Part shown: positions 592 through 13,433 of the stretch, piece by piece | How the letters are laid out: every line of letters starts with the position of its first letter | Numbering within the stretch: the stretch's first letter is position 1 | Assembly: GCA_015163845.1 (NCBI GenBank) | Contig: JAAOII010000113.1 | Span: 1 to 32,774 of the forward strand | Direction of reading: 5' to 3' | Length of the DNA: 32,774 nt | From: Candidatus Portiera sp. | GTDB lineage: Bacteria > Pseudomonadota > Gammaproteobacteria > CBDBNL01 > JAAOII01 | The notes under the pieces: model-generated | The model's database searches: none | Told to the model about the DNA's origin: nothing | The model's input: only the letters and a program-made list of their open reading frames with translations | Made by a program: the position numbers and the translations under genes

Positions 592-1326
592 ATGCATAGT
601 TTTATCCGACTGTTCAATAATGACTTTTTAAGCCAGCCGTTAATTGCCAAGCGGAAGGAGATTTGGCGTAATAAAGAAGATGCTCCACGTGAAAAGCTTA
701 TGAAAAAGGGAGTTGAGTTCCTTAGCGACAGTGAACTACTAGCTATTTTTCTAAGAGTTGGTTATAAAGGTAAAAATGTTATGGAATTAGCTCAAGACGT
801 TATTGCCACCAAGGGCTTATCTTGGCTACTCACTGCAAACTCTAAGGAGTTCTGTGACTATAAGGGCTTGGGACCGTCACACTATGTGCAATTACGTGCG
901 GTTATGGAGTTGGCAAGACGCTATCTAGAGGAGGTAATGTTACGTCAGTCCGAATCACTTAACTCACCAACTAAGATAAAAAACTTCCTCTGCCACCGCT
1001 TAGGTGATAGCACACGGGAAGTATTTGCTTGCCTGTTCATGGACAACAAGAATAGAGTTATAGAATACAAAGAACTTTTCAGTGGCACCATTGACTCTGC
1101 CAATGTCTATCCACGCGAAATCATTCGCCATGCTTTGCAAGTAAATGCTGCTGGTTTGGTGGTAGTTCATAACCATCCTTCAGGATCGGTCAAACCAAGT
1201 GTGGCAGACAAGCATATAACTGGAGTCATAAAGGATGCTTGCGAATTGATGGAAATTCGCCTGCTGGATCATATAATCGTTAGTGGCAACAAGTCATTAT
1301 CCTTCCTAGAAGACGGCCTTTTATAG
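592..1326 (+). CDS. radC: RadC/YicR-family JAMM-motif protein
   Basis: Conserved N-terminal PREKLMKKGVEFLSDSELLAIFLRVG and C-terminal JAMM motif VVHNHPSGSVKPSVAD. The ORF opens at 562, overlapping the recN stop; ATG 592 is an equally plausible start. Confidence 0.9.
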   Translation: MHSFIRLFNNDFLSQPLIAKRKEIWRNKEDAPREKLMKKGVEFLSDSELLAIFLRVGYKGKNVMELAQDVIATKGLSWLLTANSKEFCDYKGLGPSHYVQLRAVMELARRYLEEVMLRQSESLNSPTKIKNFLCHRLGDSTREVFACLFMDNKNRVIEYKELFSGTIDSANVYPREIIRHALQVNAAGLVVVHNHPSGSVKPSVADKHITGVIKDACELMEIRLLDHIIVSGNKSLSFLEDGLL

Positions 1327-1372
1327 TCCCCCTTATATAAATATCTAGTACAAATATTTAGAGCATCTTTTA

Positions 1373-2953
1373 ATGGTTAATAATAAAGTAAGAAGAAAGA
1401 CCAACTGGAAACCATATAATGAAGGGGAAAAGCATGATAAGTCCATGTGGGATTCTCCCAAAGATGGACCTCAAGTTCTTTATAAACAATTACCTATAGT
1501 ACTTCAAGTATTAAAGCAACATCACAATAAAAACAAACATACTATTTTTAAAGAAATTAATAAAAAATTTGAAGCAGAAGGAGCATCATCTCCGAGATTG
1601 AGTGATAGCAGAATAGGTACAATAATAGCACTTGGAAGAAAGTTAGGCCTAATCAAAAAGGAGAACTTTGAATTAACAAATGCTGGAATCACGAGCATCA
1701 GTGCAGATTATCTAAGCATAATTCAACAACAATATATTAAGTTGGTCTTTGATAATCCTATATTAAAGAATAGCAACGACATAGAAATATTTCCAATAAT
1801 TGCCCTAATGGAAATATTAATAGAAACAAATGATCTCAGTATTGAGGAGGTGGCTATCTTCATATTTTCTGAATTAAAAAATAGAGAACAAATACCTGAA
1901 ACGATTAAGAATATCTCTAAATTTAGAAAACTAGATAAAGAGTCACGAGAAGAACTTATTAATGACTTTAAACACACTCACAAGGGAAATATTACATTGA
2001 CTAAGGCATCTAGCGTAACATACTTGTTCAGCAATCTTTCAAGGATAAGTTTATTTTATGTTTATGATAAACGGATTAAGCTATCAAGCACAGATGAAGC
2101 AAAAAAGATTATAGAAAAATATAAAAACAAATCACACTTTAAATTTAAGGATCATGAACTGCTATATTGGGATGCCTATTATGGCAATACAGCAATTCAT
2201 TTTCCGCCTAAGGAAGTAACTTTTAAATTTGCAGATAATAATTTTGAGGCATATCTATTAATAAAAAATGATATCTATAAAACAGATCTAATTAAAGTAG
2301 AGGATGAAATAACTATTCCTGTTTTTGATGAGCTAACCAACATATTAGAAGTTTATAACTTGCAGTATGAAAATCAGCAATATGTTAAGAAATTTAAACC
2401 CTATGAAATAAAATCCGTAGAATTATTAGCACTTGAATTTAGTTCTCAATACCCCATAGCTGATCTATTAGAGTATTACAAAGGCAGTGAGATTTATCCT
2501 GTTTTGTCTAGGATGCTTCGTTACAAAGAAAGAAATGTAAACTCTAACTTAAGGGGTGGTAGATTTGAAAACTTAGTTTATGAGTTTCTAAAAGAAGGAC
2601 TCACTTCTATGAAGGTTAATTGGAACGGCAGGATTGACAAAGATGGAATAGCTAAACCAGCAACTGGCGGACAATCAGATATAGTGGTAGAAAGCAATGA
2701 GTATTTTTATGTCGTTGAGACAACTACGATGAAGCACCGCTCAGGCATAGAAAGTGCTGAGACATTCAGTTTATCTAGACATGCCAAGGAGTTTCTTGAT
2801 AAAGGTAAAAAAGTTAAGATAGTGCTCATCGCCCCGGTAAAATATCAATCTATAACTAATGATATGGAGCGGATGGTTTCTAATTTAGGAATAGAATATC
2901 AGAGTATTGATATAGACGAATTAATTAGCAGCCACGGCAAAATTTTCATCTAG
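1373..2953 (+). CDS. Putative type II (IIS-like) restriction endonuclease, possibly AlwI-like family
   Basis: A 526-aa Lys/Asn/Ile-rich ORF, convergent with the adjacent methylase gene and overlapping its 3' end by 33 bp. The C-terminal ~130 aa has a PD-(D/E)XK-like pattern (GGQSDIVVE ... YVVETTTMK). Size plus two companion methylases recalls AlwI/MlyI/PleI-type enzymes. The family call is from memory and was not searched. Confidence 0.55.
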   Translation: MVNNKVRRKTNWKPYNEGEKHDKSMWDSPKDGPQVLYKQLPIVLQVLKQHHNKNKHTIFKEINKKFEAEGASSPRLSDSRIGTIIALGRKLGLIKKENFELTNAGITSISADYLSIIQQQYIKLVFDNPILKNSNDIEIFPIIALMEILIETNDLSIEEVAIFIFSELKNREQIPETIKNISKFRKLDKESREELINDFKHTHKGNITLTKASSVTYLFSNLSRISLFYVYDKRIKLSSTDEAKKIIEKYKNKSHFKFKDHELLYWDAYYGNTAIHFPPKEVTFKFADNNFEAYLLIKNDIYKTDLIKVEDEITIPVFDELTNILEVYNLQYENQQYVKKFKPYEIKSVELLALEFSSQYPIADLLEYYKGSEIYPVLSRMLRYKERNVNSNLRGGRFENLVYEFLKEGLTSMKVNWNGRIDKDGIAKPATGGQSDIVVESNEYFYVVETTTMKHRSGIESAETFSLSRHAKEFLDKGKKVKIVLIAPVKYQSITNDMERMVSNLGIEYQSIDIDELISSHGKIFI

Positions 2954-3637
2954 TGCAGCGACACGTTCTTTAGCGTCTTGGCAGAATTGTTCATCTAATT
3001 CAAAACCTATATATTCCCTACCTAAAGCTTTACAGGCAACTGCCGTAGTCCCATAGCCCATAAAAGGATCTAAAACAATACTCTTATCGGGGAAGCATTG
3101 CAAAATATCAGTTACCATCTTTTCTGGGAATTGTCTTGTGTGGTTAACATTTGTCCCCACTGGCCTCCATTCTTGCCAGTTAAAGACATCACTATGCTTT
3201 ATTATGTTATTTAATTTAGTAGTTTTTAATTTGGTTAGCCAATAGATCCTTTCAGTGAAAGGATAAAATCTGATTTTATCAAAATTTTGACTTCTATTTA
3301 TCCAAACTATTTCCTGCTTAATTATAAAGTCGGTCTTGAATAACCACTCATAAGGAGAAATTTGTTTGCCATCTTTTATCCTGTTTTTATGATTATAAAA
3401 AAATGAGCCGTCATCTTTTAGTACTCTAAATATTTCTTGAATAACTTTAATTTGCCACTCTTGATATTCATTTTCTGGCATAGCATCTTTATATGATGAA
3501 TGGAGTTTAGTGCCTGTATGATGGTTATTCCCTAAGTTGTAGGGGGGAGATGTTATGGCAAGGTCTATGGAATTATCTTTGAGTTGTCCAAGACCTTCAA
3601 GAACATCAAGGCAGTAGATATCATTTGTTGCTAACAC
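2921..3637 (-). CDS. DNA methyltransferase, N6_N4_Mtase family, beta-class motif order (N4-C or N6-A)
   Basis: Motif IV DLAITSPPYNLG lies near the N-terminus and SAM motif I VLDPFMGYGTTAVA near the C-terminus. The GTG start overlaps the upstream methylase stop by 7 nt (GTGTTAG). Confidence 0.9.
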   Translation of the reverse strand: MLATNDIYCLDVLEGLGQLKDNSIDLAITSPPYNLGNNHHTGTKLHSSYKDAMPENEYQEWQIKVIQEIFRVLKDDGSFFYNHKNRIKDGKQISPYEWLFKTDFIIKQEIVWINRSQNFDKIRFYPFTERIYWLTKLKTTKLNNIIKHSDVFNWQEWRPVGTNVNHTRQFPEKMVTDILQCFPDKSIVLDPFMGYGTTAVACKALGREYIGFELDEQFCQDAKERVAALDENFAVAAN

Positions 3638-4857
3638 TTCTGCAAATATACTAAGCTTTCTCTTAATTTTTCTGAGTTAGTGATCTTTTTTTGTTGCTGA
3701 GGGCTAGTATTCAATTTCCGGGCGACATCTAATTTGATGCACTTAAACCCCATACTCTCTCCTATGACGGCTAATATTTCATCCGTTGGTATAACAACTC
3801 TACCATAAGCAGAATTACCTACGATAATAACACAATGCCCTCCCTTTTTTAATACCTTGTGAACATTGCGAAGGACCTTCTGCATATCTGAGAAATAACT
3901 ATCCACCATGTCTGGTATCTTTGGACTCCAAATATCTTGATGTCTAATAGCAGTGATATATTTCTGTATCATCTGCATGCCTTTTTCTGGCACAATTTCT
4001 TTGTTTAGATGGGAGGTTAAGCTGCTATTTCTAATATTCTTTAGATCAGAGTATGCATTTACAAAACCACCAAACCATAATTCAACCTTATATATCTCTG
4101 TATAATCAAAACAATTTAAGTAAGGCGGGGAAAAGACACTAAGTGCTGCAGAGTTTTTGTGTTCTTCTAGGAAATCACTAGCAATATTTCTACAATCTCC
4201 AAATACCACTTTATTGTTAGAATCTGCAACTTGACCATCTACTATATCTTCCAGCATTTGTTCAACTTTATTAGAGAATGCTGTAATAAATTGCTCTGGT
4301 TTCTTCCTTGGCGGATATCTCAAACCATTACCATCCTTCTTAGCAAAACCACATCTCTCAAGAACCGATAAAAATGCGATCAAGTAAAAGTTTCTAATTT
4401 TCTCATCTCGTATTCCTAAGATAACTTGGCGATATCTTAAAATACTATCTAATTGACTGCCAAAAACTTTATCAGCAATAGACAATCCAACTCTCTGAAC
4501 CTTTTGGACTTTGGATGATCTGTTTTTGATGATACTTTTATATTTATAAATCTTCTGGATACTTGATGAATCATAAGTGGCAATCTTTGTTTTTGTAAGA
4601 GTATAAAGGAATGGATTGACTTCAAACCCTAAAAAGTTTATGCCTTTTTCCTTTGCTGTTAACAAAGTAGTTCCGCACCCACTGAAAGGATCAAAGACCT
4701 TACCTTCTTTTATTTTTAACTCGCTCATCAAGTCGCTTACTAATTTAGAGGAATAACCTTCCTTTAAATTAAACCAACTATGGATTGGCAAATTCATATT
4801 TCCTGAAAAATTAACTAGGTTGCCATACTCGGGCTGGGAAGTGATAGGGATGTGCAT
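3631..4857 (-). CDS. DNA methyltransferase, N6_N4_Mtase family, alpha-like motif order
   Basis: Motif I VFDPFSGCGTTLLTA comes first, then a spacer of roughly 180 aa, then motif IV LSVFSPPYLNCFDY. It is a 408-aa protein in the same operon as the 238-aa methylase. Confidence 0.85.
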   Translation of the reverse strand: MHIPITSQPEYGNLVNFSGNMNLPIHSWFNLKEGYSSKLVSDLMSELKIKEGKVFDPFSGCGTTLLTAKEKGINFLGFEVNPFLYTLTKTKIATYDSSSIQKIYKYKSIIKNRSSKVQKVQRVGLSIADKVFGSQLDSILRYRQVILGIRDEKIRNFYLIAFLSVLERCGFAKKDGNGLRYPPRKKPEQFITAFSNKVEQMLEDIVDGQVADSNNKVVFGDCRNIASDFLEEHKNSAALSVFSPPYLNCFDYTEIYKVELWFGGFVNAYSDLKNIRNSSLTSHLNKEIVPEKGMQMIQKYITAIRHQDIWSPKIPDMVDSYFSDMQKVLRNVHKVLKKGGHCVIIVGNSAYGRVVIPTDEILAVIGESMGFKCIKLDVARKLNTSPQQQKKITNSEKLRESLVYLQKC

Positions 4858-5184
4858 ATTAAATAATATTATAGGTCATTTTTTCTGATTTTGATTCTTT
4901 CAGGTTTTCTATTGGTATGAAAAGTGAGAGTAACTTGATAGTGAGTGAGAAAGATGCCCTAAATAGACGAAATTAAAAATTTTGATTTTATTGCAAAAAT
5001 ATTCAATTTACGACCTAAATAAATATTTTATGCTAATCTGCAATTAATGATATTAGTTAATTTAGAAAACATTAGAGATTGAAATGGACGTTATAACTCC
5101 ACGCATTCTTGGTATAACAAACGTTAAAAATGTTTTCTTAACAATCTTATATCATATTATTATTTACAAACAAGGAAATTAATT

Positions 5185-6735
5185 ATGACAGAACATGAAA
5201 ATAAATTAGAATCTAAAGATTTTATTAATATAGCAGGAAAAGGATTCACTGAAGATTATAGTGTAGCAGATTTCAATGCTATAGGAGCATCTATGATAGG
5301 TGATGGTAGTAGCATTGATAGGGCAGATTGGAGTATAGCAGCAGGATATACCTATTTGGGACAGTTCATAGATCATGATATAACCCATACAAATGGTGAA
5401 GAAAATAGAAATACTGCTCAGTTGGACTTAGATAGCTTATACCCCAAGAATGAAAACGACACAACAATAAAAGATGGTAAATTCCTCTTGGGAGATCATG
5501 GAGGTTCAAATATAGGAGGAGACCTTCGCCGCGATATTAATTTCCATGCAATGATTCCAGACCATCGTAACGATGAGAATATTATTATTGCATCTATTCA
5601 TCTAACTTTCCAAAAGTTTCATAATATTTTAGTTAATCAAGGGAATAGTTTTAATCAGGCAAAAGTAATAGTTATGGATCATTACCATGCAATAGTAGCA
5701 TATGATTTTGTCCGTAAGTTAACTGATCTTAACCAGGACCAAATATCTAATATTATTGATAGACAAGAAAAAAGATTTATCTACACAGAAGATATGGTGA
5801 GAATGAACGGAGGTCCTTTCATACCTACAGAGTTCTCTGGTGCTTGTTATCGTTTTGGCCATACCATGGTGCGTTCAAACTATGATTTCAATGATAATTT
5901 TTCGAAGGGCACTCTTTCCAAACCTCCTCTATTCTTTGGCTTTCCAGGTGGAAGACCTGACTTCAATCTTGTTGGAAGTGATGGAAAACCTTTCCCAACA
6001 AGTGATGCGCGCAGCCATAAAATCACTTCTGTATGGGTATTATCTGGTACTGCAACTTTGTTCGAAGGTGGTAAAAAACTTCAGTCATTAGAAAGGTTTT
6101 TTGAAAAAGGAAAGAATAAAAGAAATTCAGCCGGAGTTATTGATACAAATTTATCCGATGTGATGGGAAATCTTCAAGTAAGTAAGACAGCAAAGAAAGA
6201 CACGGTCTTAACGGATATTGATAAGTTTAATATAGCATCAAGAAATTTACAAAGAGGACAATCTCTTGGATTAGTTAGTGGTCAAGAATTTGCCCAATTC
6301 GTAAAAGAAAAAAGTAAGGGAAAGGTAAACCCATTGTCTGATGAAAAAATACAAGAGGTTATAGAAAACTTAGCTTCTAGATCTGAAGAAAAAATTTCTG
6401 ATGCATTAAAGAAAAAATTAATATCAAATACTCCTCTATGGTTATATACCTTGGCAGAGGCAGAAGCAGCAGAGGTAGGAACAGGAGCACGATTAGGTCC
6501 CATAGCAAGTAGATGTGTTGCCGAAGTGATATTAGGACTCTTAATGGATGATACTATGAATGTTGACTCCATTAGGAATACTAGTCAATCTAGAAAGAAT
6601 GCTCCATATAATCTAAATGAGCCAAATGAGCCAAATAAATGGAAATCTTCTATAATTCAAAACAAAGAAGCAAGAGATATAGAAATGCTTGATATCATTA
6701 AATTTGTCAATAAAAATCATAATAAGGTGCTCTAA
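5185..6735 (+). CDS. Animal-type heme peroxidase (peroxidase-cyclooxygenase superfamily), no signal peptide
   Basis: Distal-site motif GQFIDHDITHT, the Arg/Glu motif PDHRNDEN followed by IHLTFQKFHN (GDxRxNE...HN pattern), and proximal-His motif ACYRFGHTMV. The N-terminus MTEHENKLESKDF is hydrophilic. An AAGGAA Shine-Dalgarno sequence lies 8 nt upstream of the ATG. Confidence 0.85.
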   Translation: MTEHENKLESKDFINIAGKGFTEDYSVADFNAIGASMIGDGSSIDRADWSIAAGYTYLGQFIDHDITHTNGEENRNTAQLDLDSLYPKNENDTTIKDGKFLLGDHGGSNIGGDLRRDINFHAMIPDHRNDENIIIASIHLTFQKFHNILVNQGNSFNQAKVIVMDHYHAIVAYDFVRKLTDLNQDQISNIIDRQEKRFIYTEDMVRMNGGPFIPTEFSGACYRFGHTMVRSNYDFNDNFSKGTLSKPPLFFGFPGGRPDFNLVGSDGKPFPTSDARSHKITSVWVLSGTATLFEGGKKLQSLERFFEKGKNKRNSAGVIDTNLSDVMGNLQVSKTAKKDTVLTDIDKFNIASRNLQRGQSLGLVSGQEFAQFVKEKSKGKVNPLSDEKIQEVIENLASRSEEKISDALKKKLISNTPLWLYTLAEAEAAEVGTGARLGPIASRCVAEVILGLLMDDTMNVDSIRNTSQSRKNAPYNLNEPNEPNKWKSSIIQNKEARDIEMLDIIKFVNKNHNKVL

Positions 6736-6816
6736 AACAAACCAGATGGGATAATTAATAGAGAAACTTTATTCTTACAATATATTTAACTAGCTGTTTA
6801 TTTGTAATAAAAAGGT

Positions 6817-7329
6817 ATGAATAACACAGAATCATTATTAAATAATAATCCTAAGGTTAAGCTACTCTGGAAGCATGAGTCAAAGCTCATGAGTTTATGC
6901 GGGAAACCGATGGGTGGTAACAAGGGGAAGTTCATGTCCATTTATGCTACTACAATAGGCAATAAAATATACATGCCAAAGGGTTGGTGGGATATTGTTG
7001 ATGAGCAGCAAAGACTTATTTTATTACGTCACGAATTAATCCATGTTAAACAAATGGCAAAATACTCGGTTCCTATTTTCTTTTTCTTGTATATATTTGT
7101 TCCATTTCCTATAGGCATTGGATACTTTCGTGCCAAGTTTGAAAAAGAGGGCTATGCTGAAACCTTGAAAGCACAGTATGAATATTGGGGTGAGAGTAGC
7201 ATCACGTCTATTGAATGCCGGGAATGGATTATTGAACAGTTTGTTGGATCTGCTTATGGGTGGATGTGGCCTTTCAAGAAGTCCATGCACAAATGGTATG
7301 ATAAAACTATCCAAGAAATTCTACATTAG
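6817..7329 (+). CDS. DUF4157-like HExxH zinc-metallopeptidase-fold protein with one central hydrophobic segment
   Basis: YATTIGNKIYMP ... LILLRHELIHVKQ matches the remembered DUF4157 pattern (T.G..I.. then LxHELxHVxQ). A hydrophobic stretch VPIFFFLYIFVPFPIGIGYF follows, then EKEGYAE as a possible third ligand. No signal peptide. Confidence 0.5.
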   Translation: MNNTESLLNNNPKVKLLWKHESKLMSLCGKPMGGNKGKFMSIYATTIGNKIYMPKGWWDIVDEQQRLILLRHELIHVKQMAKYSVPIFFFLYIFVPFPIGIGYFRAKFEKEGYAETLKAQYEYWGESSITSIECREWIIEQFVGSAYGWMWPFKKSMHKWYDKTIQEILH

Positions 7330-7412
7330 TGTTTGTTGATAGCATTATGAATATAGCATAGCTTTGCAATAGCAACGAATTACAATTAATAAGCAACCAA
7401 GAGGAAATTACT

Positions 7413-7850
7413 ATGCTAAATAAACTAATAGAACCCTTAGCCAAAGGAGTATTTGGCTTGATAGACAAACTTCATTTGTCTAAGCAGGAGAAGTTACAGT
7501 TCAAAGAAAGAATGCAATCAATGGTGCTGGATCATCAAAAGGAAGTAGAGAAAACTCTCCAAGAGCAAGCTCGTTCTACTGCTGATATCATAGTAGCTGA
7601 AGTTAAGCAAGATGATAAGTATACTAAAAGAGCCAGACCAACAGTTATATATGTAGGTATTATATTAATCATCTGGGGCTATGTTATTGCCCCTCTACTC
7701 AATGGTTATTATGGTGCAGGCATTGTAATTGAAATACCTGATTTCTTTTGGCATTCTTGGGCTGCTATTGTTGCAGTTTATGCTGGTGGCCGTAGTTATG
7801 AAAAGAGTAAGAAACTAATTCCTGGTTCAGATTCAGAAGGAGTGGGATAA
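7413..7850 (+). CDS. Holin-like membrane protein (resembles the GTA_holin_3TM family)
   Basis: A charged coiled N-terminal half (QEKLQFKERMQSMVLDHQKEVEKTLQEQARSTAD) is followed by KRARPTVIYVGIILIIWGYVIAPLL and further hydrophobic helices. The stop overlaps the amidase start (TAATG). AGAGGAA Shine-Dalgarno upstream. Confidence 0.5.
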   Translation: MLNKLIEPLAKGVFGLIDKLHLSKQEKLQFKERMQSMVLDHQKEVEKTLQEQARSTADIIVAEVKQDDKYTKRARPTVIYVGIILIIWGYVIAPLLNGYYGAGIVIEIPDFFWHSWAAIVAVYAGGRSYEKSKKLIPGSDSEGVG

Positions 7851-8542
7851 TGGTTGATAAGATAGTTAACGTAAGCAAACTTAATATTAGAAATTATCCC
7901 AAAGGATCTTTGCAGGGATATATCAAATCTGGAACTGAAGTAGAGGTATTTGAAGAAAAGAGTGGTTGGTCAAAGATAAAAACAACTGCATGGGTAATGA
8001 GCGATTATCTGCGCGATCTTCCAGAATCAGAAACTGTGAGTGGTGAAGTTATAAAGAGAATTGTAATCCACTGCTCAGCTACAAAACCAGATTATAATGC
8101 AACTGCAGAGGATATTAAGAAATGGCATACCGACCCCGTATTCAAAGGTGGACGAGGTTGGTCTCGTGCTGGCTATCATTGGGTAATAGAACGTGAACCA
8201 TGTCGTGTGGTGCCGTTGGTAGCTATGAATGATGACGAAGTTTTAGAATCATGGGAAATATCTAATGGAGTTAGAGGGTATAACAAGGACTCCATCCACG
8301 TCTGCTATGTTGGTGGATTAAATGAAAAGGGACGTCCCGCTGATAATATAACTCCTGAGCAAACAGAGGAATTAGTTGCATTATTGCAATCTTTAGTTCA
8401 AACTCGCCCAAACTTACAGCACATTGTTGGGCACACTGATCTTTACCCACTAAAGGCATGTCCATCATTTGATGTTGCAAAGTTTCTACATAAGAATCTT
8501 TCGCAGGATTTGGCTAAGAAGTATGCTTTACCTTTAAGATAG
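7850..8542 (+). CDS. N-acetylmuramoyl-L-alanine amidase (Amidase_2/PGRP/T7-lysozyme type) with N-terminal SH3 domain; endolysin-like
   Basis: SH3-like LNIRNYPKGSLQGYIKSGTEVEVFEEKSGWSKIKTTAWV. Amidase_2 motifs IVIHCSAT, AGYHWVIE, IHVCYVGG and IVGHTDLYPLKACPSFD (His/His/Cys zinc site pattern). Confidence 0.85.
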   Translation: MVDKIVNVSKLNIRNYPKGSLQGYIKSGTEVEVFEEKSGWSKIKTTAWVMSDYLRDLPESETVSGEVIKRIVIHCSATKPDYNATAEDIKKWHTDPVFKGGRGWSRAGYHWVIEREPCRVVPLVAMNDDEVLESWEISNGVRGYNKDSIHVCYVGGLNEKGRPADNITPEQTEELVALLQSLVQTRPNLQHIVGHTDLYPLKACPSFDVAKFLHKNLSQDLAKKYALPLR

Positions 8543-8571
8543 CTGAAAATAACTGAAAATAGTTTAAGAAA

Positions 8572-8817
8572 ATGCAGTCATTAATACAACTATTACAAAA
8601 AAGAACACTGGACAATAAATATTTCCCGCAGATAGTTTACTCTGGTTGTGCTCTGGCAATATACACCTTTATGCTAATACCAATATCAGGTCTAGCCGGA
8701 TTAACTCTTCCAGCAATAGCAGTAGCTGAGTCGCAGATATTCTGGGCTTCATGGTCTGTTTTAGTTGGTGGTGGCTCATTGCTGCGCTCTAAAATAAAAA
8801 TAAAAACATATGCTTAA
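8572..8817 (+). CDS. Small two-TM membrane protein (possible lysis accessory or antiholin-like)
   Basis: An 81-aa ORF with two hydrophobic helices (IVYSGCALAIYTFMLIPISGLAGL; IFWASWSVLVGGGSLL) and a basic tail, 30 bp downstream of the amidase. Function is inferred from position only. Confidence 0.4.
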   Translation: MQSLIQLLQKRTLDNKYFPQIVYSGCALAIYTFMLIPISGLAGLTLPAIAVAESQIFWASWSVLVGGGSLLRSKIKIKTYA

Positions 8818-8951
8818 ACTCAAATCAAAACCGCCATTTTTCAGAGGCATATTTATGCTGCCATGGCAATTATCATTATCCAAATTATTGGTTATTGCTG
8901 GTGCAGGAAACATACATAACATATTTAATTTAACCAACAAAAGATAACACA

Positions 8952-9914
8952 ATGCCAAAACAATCAACAATGACTAATAGATTTATGAATTATCCTATCA
9001 TAAAATGGATCATTGATAAATTTGATAAAATTAAGAAGAGGCCTTGGTTTATCAATTCTGCGCTTACCGCAGCATTATTGTGCTGGTTAACTTTAGTATT
9101 TTACTTCCCCAATGTTGTTAAATATGATAAAGAATTAGATGGTAATAAAGGTGATATTTTTAAATGGATTAGAGTGATCATAGCTGGAATATTTGTGATT
9201 TTTATACCCTTAATACTTTCTGAAAAAGGAACACGTCCAAAAAGCAAAATATTGACTAAGGAAAACTATATGCTGGTTTTAGTGCTTACTATAATCTTTG
9301 TAGTATTAACATTAGTTAGTGAGAATATTAGTGCTATTGTAGGGGCACTGCAAAATAGTAAGAATTGGCTGAGAGATGTTTTTTTTGAACTGGTTAATAA
9401 TGAGAAGGGACTTGCTCCATTTGCATGGACAACATTATTCTTAGTTGCAGTGGCTATCGCAGTTTTATCACACACTTTTTGGTGGTTTTTTACTGGGATT
9501 ATAGGAATTATTGTAGCAGCATTCATATTAATTGTTCCTCCAGTTGTTGAAGGTATTCAGCCCAATGAAATGAATTGGGTGATAAACATATTAGTTATAT
9601 TAGCGAGTGGGGTGGTGTTACCTTTCATGGTGGTTAAAGAAATAACAGAAAAAGACAAGATTAAAATGAGCGGGAGTACATTAGTTTCTATTGGCATAAA
9701 ATCTCTTGCTGTGCCCGCCTTGGTGTTTACTTTCATTTCTACTAGTCCTAATTTTAATAATGACACTCCTCAGATAGAATCTAATACAACGATAGACAAT
9801 TCTACTGGAAGTATAGAGAGTATAGAAAAGATTATAGATAACCATACTTATGCCTTTCAAGGACAGTTCCATATTGAGTTTAATAGAGATTTAAAGGACA
9901 GAATTATTATCTGA
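8952..9914 (+). CDS. Polytopic inner-membrane protein of unknown function
   Basis: A 320-aa ORF with at least 6 long hydrophobic segments and a hydrophilic Asn/Ser/Thr-rich C-terminal ~60 aa. No recognisable motif. Confidence 0.5.
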   Translation: MPKQSTMTNRFMNYPIIKWIIDKFDKIKKRPWFINSALTAALLCWLTLVFYFPNVVKYDKELDGNKGDIFKWIRVIIAGIFVIFIPLILSEKGTRPKSKILTKENYMLVLVLTIIFVVLTLVSENISAIVGALQNSKNWLRDVFFELVNNEKGLAPFAWTTLFLVAVAIAVLSHTFWWFFTGIIGIIVAAFILIVPPVVEGIQPNEMNWVINILVILASGVVLPFMVVKEITEKDKIKMSGSTLVSIGIKSLAVPALVFTFISTSPNFNNDTPQIESNTTIDNSTGSIESIEKIIDNHTYAFQGQFHIEFNRDLKDRIII

Positions 9915-10038
9915 TGGCACACGACATCTAGTTAAACACTGGTTTATTAACCTAGTTGTATTAGTTTAATAACATTATTATGAACCAAGATTTTGAGCTT
10001 TTAACCTTGTTTATATTATAAAAAATAAGAGTTAGATT

Positions 10039-11112
10039 ATGAGTGATTTTTTTGAGATTGATTTTTTAAATACTGGGTCAAGGCAAAGCGGCGATGCCAT
10101 TACGTTAAGATATTCAATTAATGGCAAGATTAGAATCCATGTGACCGATGGTGGATTTCAAGATACTGGGAATTTGATAATAGAACATATAAACGAACAT
10201 TATAATTACCCAAGTCGTATTGATGCTATTATAGTAACTCATTCTGACAATGATCATACGGGAGGATTAGCTAAATTATTTGATGAATATGAAATTGGTG
10301 AGCTTTGGATGTTAAGACCATGGCAATATGCTGAAGAATTAATTGCAAGATTTCCTCGGTTTACTTCTATTGATAACCTTAAAAAACGAATGAAAGACAT
10401 TTACCCTAATATAGCTACCTTGGAAGAACTTGCTGAAAAAAATAATGTGGCAATTATGGAACCATTCCAAAACTCTAAGATTGGATATTTTCATGTCTTG
10501 GCACCGTCTAAGGAGCATTATCTTGATCTTGTGGTTGAATCTGATAAAACACCAGAAGGGACTACTAAATCCATTTCTGAGGAGATGGGACAAATTGTCA
10601 ATAAAATTAAAAGTTTGATCATCTTTGCATGGGGGGTGGAACATTTTCCAGAAGATGATACGAGTCCCGAAAATAATATGAGCGTGATTCAATATGCCTA
10701 TCTATGTGAGAAGAAAGTTTTGCTAACTGGGGATGCAGGACGTGCCGCTCTTAATGAGGCGGCTGACTTTGCGCCAAGTACGGGGCTAGAACTCCCGAAT
10801 AGCTTTCACTGCATACAAGTACCGCATCATGGTTCAAGACACAATGTATCAACTGAAGTTTTAAACCGTTGGCTAGGCCTTGTATCTAAAGTTAATTACG
10901 AGGGTAACCTATCAACTGCAATTGTCAGTGCTGCAAAGGAAGATAAAGATCATCCAAGAAAGGCAGTTGTTCGGGCTTTTAATCACAGAAGAGCAAAAGT
11001 AATGTCTACAGCAGAATGTAGTGTGCGAAATCAGAGTCCCAATGCTCCAACTCGTGAAGGGTGGAGACCAGCAACCCCTCTTCCATATCCAGAAGCTCAA
11101 GAGAAATTGTAG
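10039..11112 (+). CDS. Metallo-beta-lactamase-fold hydrolase, ComEC C-terminal-domain-like
   Basis: HxHxDH-type motif IIVTHSDNDHTGG, then LLTGDAG and QVPHHGSRHN as in the ComEC/Rec2 MBL domain. No TM segments. Confidence 0.75.
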   Translation: MSDFFEIDFLNTGSRQSGDAITLRYSINGKIRIHVTDGGFQDTGNLIIEHINEHYNYPSRIDAIIVTHSDNDHTGGLAKLFDEYEIGELWMLRPWQYAEELIARFPRFTSIDNLKKRMKDIYPNIATLEELAEKNNVAIMEPFQNSKIGYFHVLAPSKEHYLDLVVESDKTPEGTTKSISEEMGQIVNKIKSLIIFAWGVEHFPEDDTSPENNMSVIQYAYLCEKKVLLTGDAGRAALNEAADFAPSTGLELPNSFHCIQVPHHGSRHNVSTEVLNRWLGLVSKVNYEGNLSTAIVSAAKEDKDHPRKAVVRAFNHRRAKVMSTAECSVRNQSPNAPTREGWRPATPLPYPEAQEKL

Positions 11113-11218
11113 TTATATATGCTGGGGGTGATTATTAATTCTAAATTAGTTATTAATATAACTCTGTTAGCTATAATTCTGTAGCTATAATGTCCTATAA
11201 TAATAAGAAAGAGAATAA

Positions 11219-11291
11219 GGGGCCATAGCTCAGCTGGGAGAGCATCTGCTTTGCAAGCAGGAGGTCGTCGGTTCGATCCCGTCTGGCTCCA
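11219..11291 (+). tRNA. tRNA-Ala (anticodon UGC)
   Basis: GGGGCCATAGCTCAGCTGGGAGAGCATCTGCTTTGCAAGCAGGAGGTCGTCGGTTCGATCCCGTCTGGCTCCA folds as a cloverleaf by hand. It has the G3:U70 Ala identity pair, anticodon loop TTTGCAA and T-loop GGTTCGATCC. CCA is not encoded. Confidence 0.95.
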
Positions 11292-11605: not shown

Positions 11606-11666
11606 CAGCTATATCAATCTAGCTGCTTAGCAGCTCTACAAATTCCTTATTTAGGTGCATATTTTG

Positions 11667-12500
11667 ATGCCCTATACAAGTTCTTGCAGGTTTTTATATC
11701 TGTTATTGCTGAGCTTGTGCTCTGCTTTCTTTCCTATGTGGGCGGAAGCCCTAGCTGCAGATCTAGCTTCTGCAGATATTTGTGTTCCTCCAAAGCAGGG
11801 ATTGGTTGCTACAGATGTTAGATATGTAATAGACGGAGATTCTCTAAAACTTGCCAATGGGCAAGAATTAAGAATTATTGGCATAAACACTCCTGAGCAC
11901 GGAGATTTTTTGGCTGACAAAGCACGCCAAACCCTAAAGCAAAATCTACGTCAAGGAATCAATGGCGGAAAGAATAGCAAAATCAAAATCTATAGGTCCC
12001 TTGGTAGCGACAAACGTGATTCTTATGGCAGGATATTAGCACATTTATGGCTATTAGGTGATGATGGCCGTTGGACTAGCCCAGCAATTAATTTGTTAGA
12101 ACAAGGATTAGCATTCCACATTGCCATATTTCCTAATCTTGAGTATATATCTTGCTATGCTGCTGCAGAACAACAGGCAAAAACGGCTAAAAGGGGATTA
12201 TGGGATAACTGGCGACCACTGGCAGCATCTAGCAAGAAACTTAAACCAGGGTTTGCTTTTATTAAAGGAGATATAGTGGAAATAATTGATAAAGGTCGTT
12301 TTGGCAGTGAGTTAATAATGTCTGGTGGATCTATTGGTTTGTGGATACCAGCTAAATCCTATAAATTATTTGGTGGCAAGCACAAATTGAAAGCATTTAT
12401 AGGGCAGAGGGCTGTAGCACGCGGTTGGATATACAGATACAAAGATAACCGCAGGTTGCAACTACAAGTGTCTCATCCAGCCATGTTGGATTTACTTTAG
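11667..12500 (+). CDS. Secreted staphylococcal-nuclease (SNase/thermonuclease)-like protein
   Basis: Signal-peptide-like LYLLLLSLCSAFFPMWAEALA. SNase motifs VIDGDSLKL, ELRIIGINTPE and DSYGRILAHLW. The ORF track opens at GTG 11655; ATG 11667 is preferred. Confidence 0.75.
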   Translation: MPYTSSCRFLYLLLLSLCSAFFPMWAEALAADLASADICVPPKQGLVATDVRYVIDGDSLKLANGQELRIIGINTPEHGDFLADKARQTLKQNLRQGINGGKNSKIKIYRSLGSDKRDSYGRILAHLWLLGDDGRWTSPAINLLEQGLAFHIAIFPNLEYISCYAAAEQQAKTAKRGLWDNWRPLAASSKKLKPGFAFIKGDIVEIIDKGRFGSELIMSGGSIGLWIPAKSYKLFGGKHKLKAFIGQRAVARGWIYRYKDNRRLQLQVSHPAMLDLL

Positions 12501-13433
12501 CTATGCTGAGAAGTTTTTTTTCTTGGCGGCTTCTCTGGCAGCTAATTTTTCTCTGTGCACCTTCAATAATGTTTTCACCCACGGAGGAGTAGGAGGGATA
12601 GGGGCAAATTTAACACCTTCTGCCTTCCATTTTTTTGTCAATGCAGTCTGATCCGCTCTATATTTTTCAGGATCTTTACGCCTTTCTTCATCCTTCTTTG
12701 CCCGCCACCGCCGAGATTCTATCATCACTTCAGAACTTTCAATGGCATCTATCAATCTTTGTTTTTCCTTTTTGTCCATATTATCCCAAGATTCAGTATT
12801 GAACAATACATACTTATGTTTCGTGGTTTTCATGGATTTTATGGCTTTCGTAGATTTCATAGTGTCAATATTATACAACATTCCTTTATCTTGGACCTGG
12901 TGTTTACTTAATTCATGCCTAATAAGTGCCAGATAATAATTTGAACACTGCTTTGCTGTACATAATATAGGCACCTCATGGCCCTGTTGCAGAATTATTC
13001 TTATCATGTCTTGCATATTCGGTTCATTAACTAGATCTTTCATATTCCAAGTTACAAGATAATCAATTCCATAAAAGACCGCGCTTGCTAAAATTAGAGC
13101 ATCATTGCCTGCTTTTGGTCTAAACACTCCTTCATCCATAAACAAGCCAGCAAGTTCTTCAATTTCTGGAACAACTTCTAATACCTCCATGTCCTGTGTA
13201 AGTTTTATGCGGTTTTTAGCATTTTCTTTATTACCGTCAGAAATTTCATCATAAGCGGTCTCAGAAATTACTAGCTTTAATCCCTGCGTAGATTGCACCA
13301 ACTCCTGCACATCTTTCAAGATTTTATGGGATGAGCTTTTCAGCATTTCCATTTCCTCATTATCTAACTCTCTGGGAGCTGCTTCAGCATATCCTATGAT
13401 ATTGGCATCGAATGCTATTGATATTTTATTCAT
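12501..13433 (-). CDS. PIN-like domain protein with a long basic C-terminal extension
   Basis: Acidic residues are spaced as in PIN nucleases: IAFDANIIGY (Asp9), VISETAYDE, AGNDALILASAVF, and YLVTWNMKDL. The C-terminal ~120 aa is Lys/Arg/Glu-rich with APIPPTPPW. There is no adjacent antitoxin-sized ORF. Confidence 0.5.
   Translation of the reverse strand: MNKISIAFDANIIGYAEAAPRELDNEEMEMLKSSSHKILKDVQELVQSTQGLKLVISETAYDEISDGNKENAKNRIKLTQDMEVLEVVPEIEELAGLFMDEGVFRPKAGNDALILASAVFYGIDYLVTWNMKDLVNEPNMQDMIRIILQQGHEVPILCTAKQCSNYYLALIRHELSKHQVQDKGMLYNIDTMKSTKAIKSMKTTKHKYVLFNTESWDNMDKKEKQRLIDAIESSEVMIESRRWRAKKDEERRKDPEKYRADQTALTKKWKAEGVKFAPIPPTPPWVKTLLKVHREKLAAREAAKKKNFSA

Follow-up and report, generated by a model that had tools for sequence, protein, structure and literature searches.

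The five-gene locus described here lies at positions 5185-8817 of contig JAAOII010000113.1 from the Candidatus Portiera sp. assembly GCA_015163845.1, whose 32,774 nucleotides were analysed as a whole and are referred to below as the window. The last four genes (6817-8817) encode a HExxH zincin-like protein of 170 amino acids (MP170), a holin, a peptidoglycan amidase with an SH3 domain and a small membrane protein of 81 amino acids (p81), and we tentatively interpret them as a domesticated, phage-derived lysis cassette devoid of a spanin and serving a type-10-like lytic release of proteins encoded upstream of it. Clusters of holin, endolysin and spanin genes located outside phages set free toxins without a leader, some of them giant, when part of the cell population lyses (PMC10847048). 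In the model proposed here a narrow clade of marine Gammaproteobacteria carries a small non-phage island that undergoes recombination, with the cassette as its conserved 3′ module; the modules upstream would be exchanged, and at least some of these exchanges would take place by recombination inside the MP170 gene. A single gene would be all that is left of the upstream module in the window, and it encodes a leaderless, fast-evolving heme peroxidase. In some cells the holin would permeabilise the inner membrane and the amidase would cut the wall; the cell would then lyse or leak, and the cytoplasmically folded products of the upstream genes would be released. Once outside, the peroxidase could make hypohalous acids in seawater.

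The five open reading frames (ORFs) are co-directional on the + strand, with gaps of 81, 83, -1 and 29 nt between the neighbours (Table 1), just as they had been described in a first-pass annotation made from the sequence. The one-base overlap of the holin and Amidase_2 genes noted there was also confirmed: in the TAATG at 7848-7852 the holin stop and the amidase start share one base, and in the proposed model the amidase is translationally coupled to the holin. No terminator-like site was found between any of the five genes. An identical gene order is present in two independent Logan assemblies, L001 and L002, so the locus is not an assembly artefact. The profile searches suggested earlier for GTA_holin_3TM, Amidase_2, SH3_3 and An_peroxidase all returned matches.

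Table 1 Features of the locus and its surroundings in the window, with the basis of each assignment (MBL, metallo-β-lactamase; R-M, restriction-modification; REase, restriction endonuclease)
Feature	Position (nt)	Strand	Size	Basis and remarks
Peroxidase	5185-6735	+	516 aa	Pfam An_peroxidase
MP170, HExxH zincin-like protein	6817-7329	+	170 aa	Invariant motif, sub-threshold Pfam
Holin	7413-7850	+	145 aa	GTA_holin_3TM, phrog_3427
SH3_3 + Amidase_2 amidase, endolysin type	7850-8542	+	230 aa	Pfam, phrog_822
p81, truncated holin paralogue	8572-8817	+	81 aa	BLASTP to holin
p320, seven-transmembrane orphan membrane protein	8952-9914	+		Hydropathy; module membership uncertain
MBL-fold protein	10039-11112	+		PADLOC candidate PDC-M48B; neighbour of the module on the island
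tRNA-Ala(TGC), right island edge	11219-11291	+		ARAGORN
Type II R-M system, left part of the island	1373-4857	REase +, two N6/N4 methyltransferases -		PADLOC, Pfam
Inverted repeat, possible operator	5047-5073 / 5129-5155			Repeat search

The lysis functions of the cassette are assigned by clear family matches. The holin matched GTA_holin_3TM (6e-21, Pfam) and the holin family phrog_3427 (1.9e-20). We take the holin of the Rhodobacter capsulatus gene transfer agent (GTA) to be the founder of this Pfam family; the GTA holin and endolysin genes are similarly host-encoded and situated away from the capsid cluster, but the relatedness is at the family level only, the host belongs to another class, and no GTA structural cluster is evident here, the contig being the one looked at from this metagenome-assembled genome (MAG). 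The holin had been announced as a protein with three transmembrane (TM) segments. Its family assignment stands, but "3TM" belongs to the name of the Pfam family, and the hydropathy scan revealed an amphipathic N-terminus, one strong TM segment (77-95) and one weaker (104-125). The amidase is composed of SH3_3 and Amidase_2 domains (Pfam) and matched the amidase family phrog_822 (9e-44). Residues H74, H195 and C204, invariant in three orthologues, are presumably the counterparts of the Zn ligands in amidases of the T7 lysozyme type. Its relatives in isolated phages and IMG/VR show at most 43% identity and share the catalytic domain only.

The small two-TM protein of the earlier description, p81, does have two hydrophobic segments and turned out in addition to be a truncated paralogue of the holin, aligning with holin residues 67-133 at 32% identity (E 5e-8, BLASTP), with the N-terminal half of the holin absent. 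Since antiholins are often membrane proteins that are related to the holin or encoded beside it (PMC7182436), p81 is probably a modulator of the holin, a candidate antiholin or co-holin tuning its triggering. Phage lysis cassettes with an antiholin, such as ICP1 TeaA/ArrA and lambda S105/S107 (PMC7182436), have the same tight coupling of holin and endolysin and a second, holin-related small membrane protein; they differ from the cassette studied here, which is non-phage, lacks a spanin and has its putative antiholin encoded by a separate downstream paralogue instead of an alternative start. The possibility that p81 is a spanin or lipoprotein was considered and rejected, as the protein has no signal-like h-region before its conserved Cys, no lipobox, and homology to the TM region of the holin.

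The conserved unit consists of MP170, holin, SH3-amidase and p81; it was found again, with identities of 52-100%, on contigs of related marine Gammaproteobacteria (designated here by L numbers). The holin is 100% identical in L113, 80% in L006, 68% in L114 and 55% in L007, the amidase 99.6%, 67% and 52% in L113, L114 and L007, respectively, and in the same three contigs the amidase gene is followed by a p81 orthologue (98%, 58% and 40%). The MP170 gene precedes the holin gene in L006, L113 and L114. Against distant orthologues (dS 0.6-3) the holin had dN/dS ratios of 0.07-0.20 and MP170 of 0.12-0.19, and the values were 0.12 and 0.25 for the amidase and p81, respectively; such low values indicate that the cassette is kept by purifying selection and is not decaying.

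Leaderless genes are always found upstream of the cassette and their identities vary. Two types of upstream block were distinguished. The first one (L114, L007, L123) comprises three DUF2589 genes, a gene for a ~610-aa protein, a Zn-ribbon MP-family gene and a PG_binding gene. In L114 it forms a compact co-directional operon in the order DUF2589, DUF2589, 609-aa protein, DUF2589, Zn-ribbon MP (264 aa), a PG_binding/DUF5675-related protein of 531 aa, holin, amidase and the p81 homologue; L007 shares the DUF2589 core, to which a second MP paralogue and four inserted genes are added before holin, amidase and p81 follow. The second type (L003, L006, L122) begins with an fn3 protein and a protein of 1,451-1,639 aa and continues with either an LCAT-like lipase and a DUF5675/Tlde1-like protein or proteins of 220 and 398 aa. 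The latter version is seen in L006, in which the 1,451-aa protein is 35% identical to the giant protein of L003 and the 398-aa protein is followed by MP170 (80% identity), the holin and the contig end. The giant proteins of the upstream blocks span 1,100-1,640 aa. A hydropathy scan detected no leader-type N-terminus in the upstream-block proteins, among which PG_binding_1, DUF5675/Tlde1-like and LCAT-like lipase are families acting on envelopes. The giant and ~610-aa proteins had no match in isolated phages (50,697 phage records, tblastn) or among PDB sequences. The DUF2589 profile found no match in PDB, and the AlphaFold2 (AF2) model of the protein was poor (pLDDT 56), making a fold search meaningless. 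No functional literature on DUF2589, PF11655 or PDC-M48 was found in the literature search.

Several recurrent arrangements were observed in the same contigs. A conserved operon, in which three paralogous DUF2589 proteins are encoded around the ~610-660-aa protein, is present in L114 (3041-6989), L007 (2936-6976), L008 (1193-5132) and L123 (784-4314), and the ~610-660-aa protein had no Pfam, PHROG, PADLOC, PDB or phage match; in L126 and L127 an AF_0414-family protein sits between two DUF2589 genes instead. DUF5675 proteins of ~130 aa are repeatedly paired with ~170-aa proteins that are 60-65% identical between loci (L008 7073-8029 and 11685-12596; L122 6576-7483), and these pairs look like an array of toxin-immunity type or of enzymes with their partners. 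Beside the cassette in L007 (10675-12603) and L114 (855-2986) a GmrSD_C-like (DUF1524-type nuclease) protein is encoded together with a six- or seven-TM protein, a pair that may be a two-gene defence unit.

The way in which upstream blocks may be replaced is suggested by contig L003. The methyltransferase gene upstream of the peroxidase is nearly identical in L003 and the window (93-100% nucleotide identity), which identifies L003 as a sibling strain. There the peroxidase gene is followed by a frameshifted MP170 remnant without HExxH, then by a 9.4-kb block absent from the window (fn3 protein, 1,639-aa protein, 37-aa ORF, LCAT-like lipase and DUF5675/Tlde1-like protein) and, at the contig end, by the start of an intact MP170 gene. 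The remnant, the block and the intact start together show a module exchange at the MP170 gene; apparently either the window arose by a deletion or L003 by an insertion, and in both cases the exchange took place by recombination within MP170. Contig L113, obtained from the same metagenome as L003, matches positions 6777-11248 of the window at 96% nucleotide identity, and, besides the cassette proteins listed above, MP170 is 97%, p320 75% and the MBL protein 100% identical at the amino acid level. The p320 gene (dN/dS 0.48) is thus a sharply bounded hypervariable gene between flanking genes of 99.6-100% identity. The peroxidase compared with its L003 counterpart, P0002, gave a dN/dS of 0.70, with the divergence confined to the first ~400 codons. 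Peroxidase and p320 are thus hot spots of divergence between sibling strains that are otherwise almost identical here, and this could result from diversifying selection, mosaic recombination or relaxed constraint.

MP170 itself is marked by two motifs invariant across the 16 sequences compared, R71-H72-E73-x-x-H76-x-x-Q79 and RAKFEKEGYAE, which are separated by a hydrophobic hairpin at residues ~84-104. It had been labelled a DUF4157 protein, and the HExxH..Q motif fits such zincins, but the score for eCIS_core/DUF4157 (PF13699; 19.6 bits, E 1e-3) remains under the Pfam cut-off of 22; the match to PhageMetallopep (E 6e-3) is sub-threshold as well. The likeness to both families consists of the motif, the small size and the weak profile matches. 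Whereas DUF4157/eCIS_core heads polymorphic or extracellular contractile injection system (eCIS) toxins as their N-terminal domain, MP170 is a free-standing protein with a hydrophobic hairpin, and there is no eCIS locus. Its AF2 model (pLDDT 85.7) had no significant PDB or BFVD match in Foldseek, the weak structural matches being selecase, BlaR1 and phage metallopeptidase domains; neither PDB sequences (profile search) nor the 50,697 phage records (tblastn) contained a match.

Only 14 proteins of the MP170 family were returned from a collection of 5.8 billion proteins, and its close members are encoded on marine gammaproteobacterial contigs. About 457 relatives of ~40% identity are present in GTDB genomes, mostly of Myxococcota, where the operon is different, with an Hsp70/DnaK-like gene next to the MP homologue and a DNA methyltransferase gene ~5 kb upstream. 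In Kofleriaceae and Polyangiaceae (L017 9668-13141; others in L011-L087) the Hsp70/DnaK-like protein has 876 aa and directly follows the MP170 homologue, and the methyltransferase, of N6/N4 type, was seen in 36 loci, a context unrelated to lysis; automated neighbourhood clustering of 77 Myxococcota loci was swamped by spurious ORFs in the high-GC DNA. Another 25 relatives are located on IMG/VR contigs, and a pool of three of them contains genes for tail sheath, major head, terminase and portal proteins; these IMG/VR contigs have no other gene in common with the module of the window. By its distribution the MP-family zincin is a mobile accessory protein of several contexts, phages included. The MP gene nearly always adjoins a DUF5675-type or PG-binding gene, and the frames often overlap by 4-8 nt. 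Because MP170 travels with the cassette or with a wall-enzyme (DUF5675-type) partner, it is not cargo but a conserved partner of the cassette, and its gene serves as the anchor for recombination.

The closest functional parallels are the type 10 systems and related lysis cassettes, Serratia ChiWXYZ (SmaLC) and Yersinia entomophaga YenLC (HolA-PepB-Rz/Rz1) (PMC10847048, PMC9527704). As in those systems, a holin and a co-encoded peptidoglycan hydrolase stand together outside a prophage, adjoin genes for leaderless and sometimes very large proteins, have phage lysis ancestry and could plausibly act by lytic release from a subpopulation. The cassette described here differs in its hydrolase, which is an SH3 + Amidase_2 amidase and not an L-Ala-D-Glu endopeptidase or muramidase, in two extra conserved components (MP170 and p81), and in upstream genes that form a DUF2589 operon or encode giant proteins or a peroxidase instead of chitinases or Tc toxins; the spanin typical of type 10 systems was not found, and no dedicated regulator was identified. 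The earlier proposal of a holin/amidase export module thus holds as far as the pair is conserved, under selection, non-phage and placed after leaderless envelope-acting genes, and fails in that no spanin accompanies it and the peroxidase link is not conserved. The architecture of the cassette and its link to DUF2589 and giant-protein blocks appear to be undescribed in the literature searched. A bolder version of this interpretation would make MP170-holin-SH3-amidase-p81 the release or suicide engine of an undescribed modular system of marine Gammaproteobacteria, with interchangeable leaderless upstream blocks, in the window a halide-oxidising peroxidase, that are swapped at the MP gene and reach the outside through spanin-independent programmed lysis, and with MP170 and p81 acting as new lysis regulators; in that full form it has to be regarded as doubtful.

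The first gene of the locus encodes the peroxidase. The protein exceeds the Pfam cut-off for An_peroxidase (PF03098; 42.1 bits vs 25, 5.8e-11), and the profile of its family finds solved peroxidases (8s6c_A, 5.7e-18; lactoperoxidase and myeloperoxidase, ~1e-8). As the residues of the heme pocket are conserved, i.e. the distal GQFIDHD motif (Q60/D63/H64/D65), the R128/E131 pair and the proximal H226, the protein looks catalytically competent. In these respects it resembles the short bacterial heme peroxidases of the peroxidase-cyclooxygenase superfamily, of which 8s6c_A is an example; it differs in belonging to a divergent small clade, in which P0002, found in another metagenome, is the only close relative (81% amino acid identity, the next one having 46%), and in its high dN/dS between sibling strains. 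Among its relatives, P0025, P0034, P0037, P0098 and P0120 have LysM peptidoglycan-binding domains, yet no signal peptide. In L004 (7411-15736) a 39%-identical peroxidase is encoded after two ORFs of 42-43 aa, beside ABC transporter and HlyD-type genes, a cluster resembling those for peptide modification or type 1 export.

Several observations weigh against lytic release as the function of the locus, and some concern the peroxidase directly. Signal peptides were judged absent by inspection and a Kyte-Doolittle scan, in agreement with the first reading, but for the peroxidase an N-terminal hydrophobic leader is missing in 119 of the 120 nearest relatives, LysM-fused ones included; leaderlessness is therefore a family trait and provides no argument for export through the holin. 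The peroxidase adjoins the cassette in this lineage only. Around three sampled relatives (36-39% identity) there are no lysis genes nearby, their neighbours being a type 1 secretion ABC/HlyD pair with small peptides, kinases with two-component genes, and BRCT with GT4-conflict genes, and the high dN/dS of the peroxidase could simply mean relaxed constraint. The other difficulties lie with the cassette. No lipobox was detected in any ORF of 25-200 aa at 6700-10050 on both strands, and with no spanin the disruption of the outer membrane is unexplained, a non-canonical disruptor in place of the spanin being possible. The cassette is missing or degenerate in three contigs with MP homologues: in L122, with giant protein, DUF5675 protein and MP, there is no holin within 5 kb; L008 retains only a 5′-truncated amidase gene near the MP homologue; and L010 has no cassette within 10 kb of it. 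The linkage of MP and cassette is consequently frequent and not obligatory, and the role of the MP family need not be lysis-specific, given its occurrence in real phages and in Hsp70-type operons of Myxococcota. Finally, the comparison contigs are mostly 8-22 kb long, which makes distant phage genes possible there, all the genomes are MAGs of uncultured bacteria, and the evidence is purely comparative.

The first alternative to be weighed is that the lysis genes and MP170 are a moron or the leftovers of a phage lysis region from a mobile element, be it a degraded prophage, a satellite or a tailocin-like element, and owe their retention to chance or to a recent transfer; the peroxidase would be an unrelated neighbour with a role of its own, possibly in the cytoplasm. 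It draws on the phage-typical families of holin, amidase and DUF5675, on the MP-family genes found on IMG/VR contigs together with virion genes, on the tRNA gene abutting the low-GC island, on the rve transposase adjoining the L007 cluster, and on the MP170 pseudogene of L003 and the truncated amidase of L008, which are signs of ongoing decay. The island, however, is bounded and free of phage genes. It extends over 9.7 kb (~1373 to 11112) between radC and tRNA-Ala, with a GC content of 0.32-0.38 over 1001-11000 vs 0.37-0.45 for most other parts of the contig, and on both sides it gives way to housekeeping genes (recN, radC, hemH, L31, nqr, glycerol kinase, phosphoglucomutase and ABC transporter genes). 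The 32.8-kb contig, scanned over its full length with Pfam and PHROG profiles, yielded no capsid, terminase, portal, tail or integrase gene, which bears out the original view that the holin-amidase pair lies outside any phage, and no direct repeat of the tRNA-Ala end was detected at the left island border. Phage structural genes were likewise absent from the L003 and L007 proteins (Pfam, PHROG) and from the part of the L114 proteins that was scanned (Pfam, PADLOC). Further, the cassette has remained intact, and strong purifying selection acts on it even between copies with saturated synonymous sites; its non-phage settings number at least four. IMG/VR contains no relative of the holin or the 609-aa family, those of the SH3-amidase are remote, and the giant protein is unmatched in isolated phages (it was not searched in IMG/VR). 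Taken together, a relic of this kind seems rather unlikely.

Slightly less credit is given to the idea of an abortive-infection or defence suicide module, in which phage infection would provoke early, host-controlled lysis, with MP170 or DUF2589 as sensor or regulator, and the cell would burst before progeny mature; we consider it unlikely. The position of the cassette speaks in its favour, as it is flanked on one side by the type II R-M system (in PADLOC REase_II 1.8e-36, MTase_II 5e-42 and 7e-72, with Pfam N6_N4_Mtase matches) and on the other by the MBL-fold protein, which is matched by PDC-M48B across its full length (2e-158), by LmuA-like (7e-23) and also by reverse transcriptase (RT)-associated MBL models of PADLOC. 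Related loci carry GmrSD_C-like nucleases with multi-TM partners, a KAP NTPase, an M78 peptidase and an LmuA-like MBL. The purifying selection on the cassette would suit a defence function, as would the fast evolution of the adjacent peroxidase and p320, which is often observed in arms-race genes, and defensive acceleration of lysis by a small membrane protein encoded on an island has a precedent in PLE LidI (PMC7182436). A location in a defence island is guilt by association only, however. Of the island proteins only the R-M and PDC-M48B neighbours match a model of PADLOC-DB 2.0; the peroxidase, MP170, holin, amidase, p81 and p320 do not, and the same is true of the DUF2589, 609-aa and 531-aa proteins. 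No sensor of a familiar type, such as STAND, cyclase or TIR, was found, and the large enzyme genes directly upstream of the cassette (lipase, peptidoglycan enzymes, giant proteins) are left unexplained by a suicide module.

The least probable explanation is the one put forward in the first-pass annotation, a dedicated export system with the peroxidase and the DUF4157 protein as joint cargo: the short gap between the two genes with no terminator in it, the catalytic residues of the peroxidase, predicted to be complete, and the LysM domains of several relatives, a hint of action at the cell wall, are outweighed by the 9.4 kb that separate peroxidase and intact MP170 in the sibling strain, by the lack of lysis genes in all three sampled neighbourhoods of peroxidase homologues, by the covariation of MP170 with the cassette or DUF5675-type genes and not with the peroxidase, and by leaderlessness of the peroxidase relatives whatever their context. 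The conserved linkage of peroxidase, DUF4157 protein and holin/amidase that this explanation presupposed was thus not recovered outside one lineage. The functional tie of the peroxidase to the cassette is one of adjacency and probable co-transcription in that lineage, and the peroxidase is probably incidental, at most an opportunistic or lineage-specific cargo.

The remaining elements of the island were characterised as neighbours. The R-M system looks complete, with the 526-aa REase gene convergent to those of the 238- and 408-aa methyltransferases and the 3′ ends of the REase and first methyltransferase genes overlapping. The 327-nt intergenic region between the divergent methyltransferase and peroxidase genes contains an inverted repeat with 27-nt arms that are 81% complementary and 55 nt apart; it is possible that this part of the promoter region is a regulator-binding site (operator). 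The p320 protein has seven hydrophobic segments (hydropathy scan) and no match in Pfam, PHROG or PADLOC. No PDC-M48A partner was detected among the neighbours of the MBL-fold gene. An MBL link to DUF2589 was considered and dropped, as the 357-aa MBL beside the DUF2589 cluster of L126 is of the LmuA type and only remotely similar to that of the window. Past tRNA-Ala and L31, positions 11655-13433 encode a 281-aa staphylococcal-nuclease-like protein and a convergent 310-aa ORF without family match, which may still be part of the variable region.

Lysis cassettes kept for the bacteria's own use, as in the type 10 systems, have been described in a few pathogens, enteric and insect ones, and current opinion is that they let large folded toxins out at the expense of some of the cells. 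With the eye-catching peroxidase probably incidental, the focus shifts to the four-gene cassette and the variable blocks upstream of it. If the tentative interpretation as a lytic release cassette is true, it would extend the type 10 theme to uncultured marine bacteria, with another hydrolase, no spanin and two new accessory proteins, and a testable mechanism of release would become connected with several protein families, namely DUF2589, the ~610-aa protein, the giant proteins and the zincin MP170.

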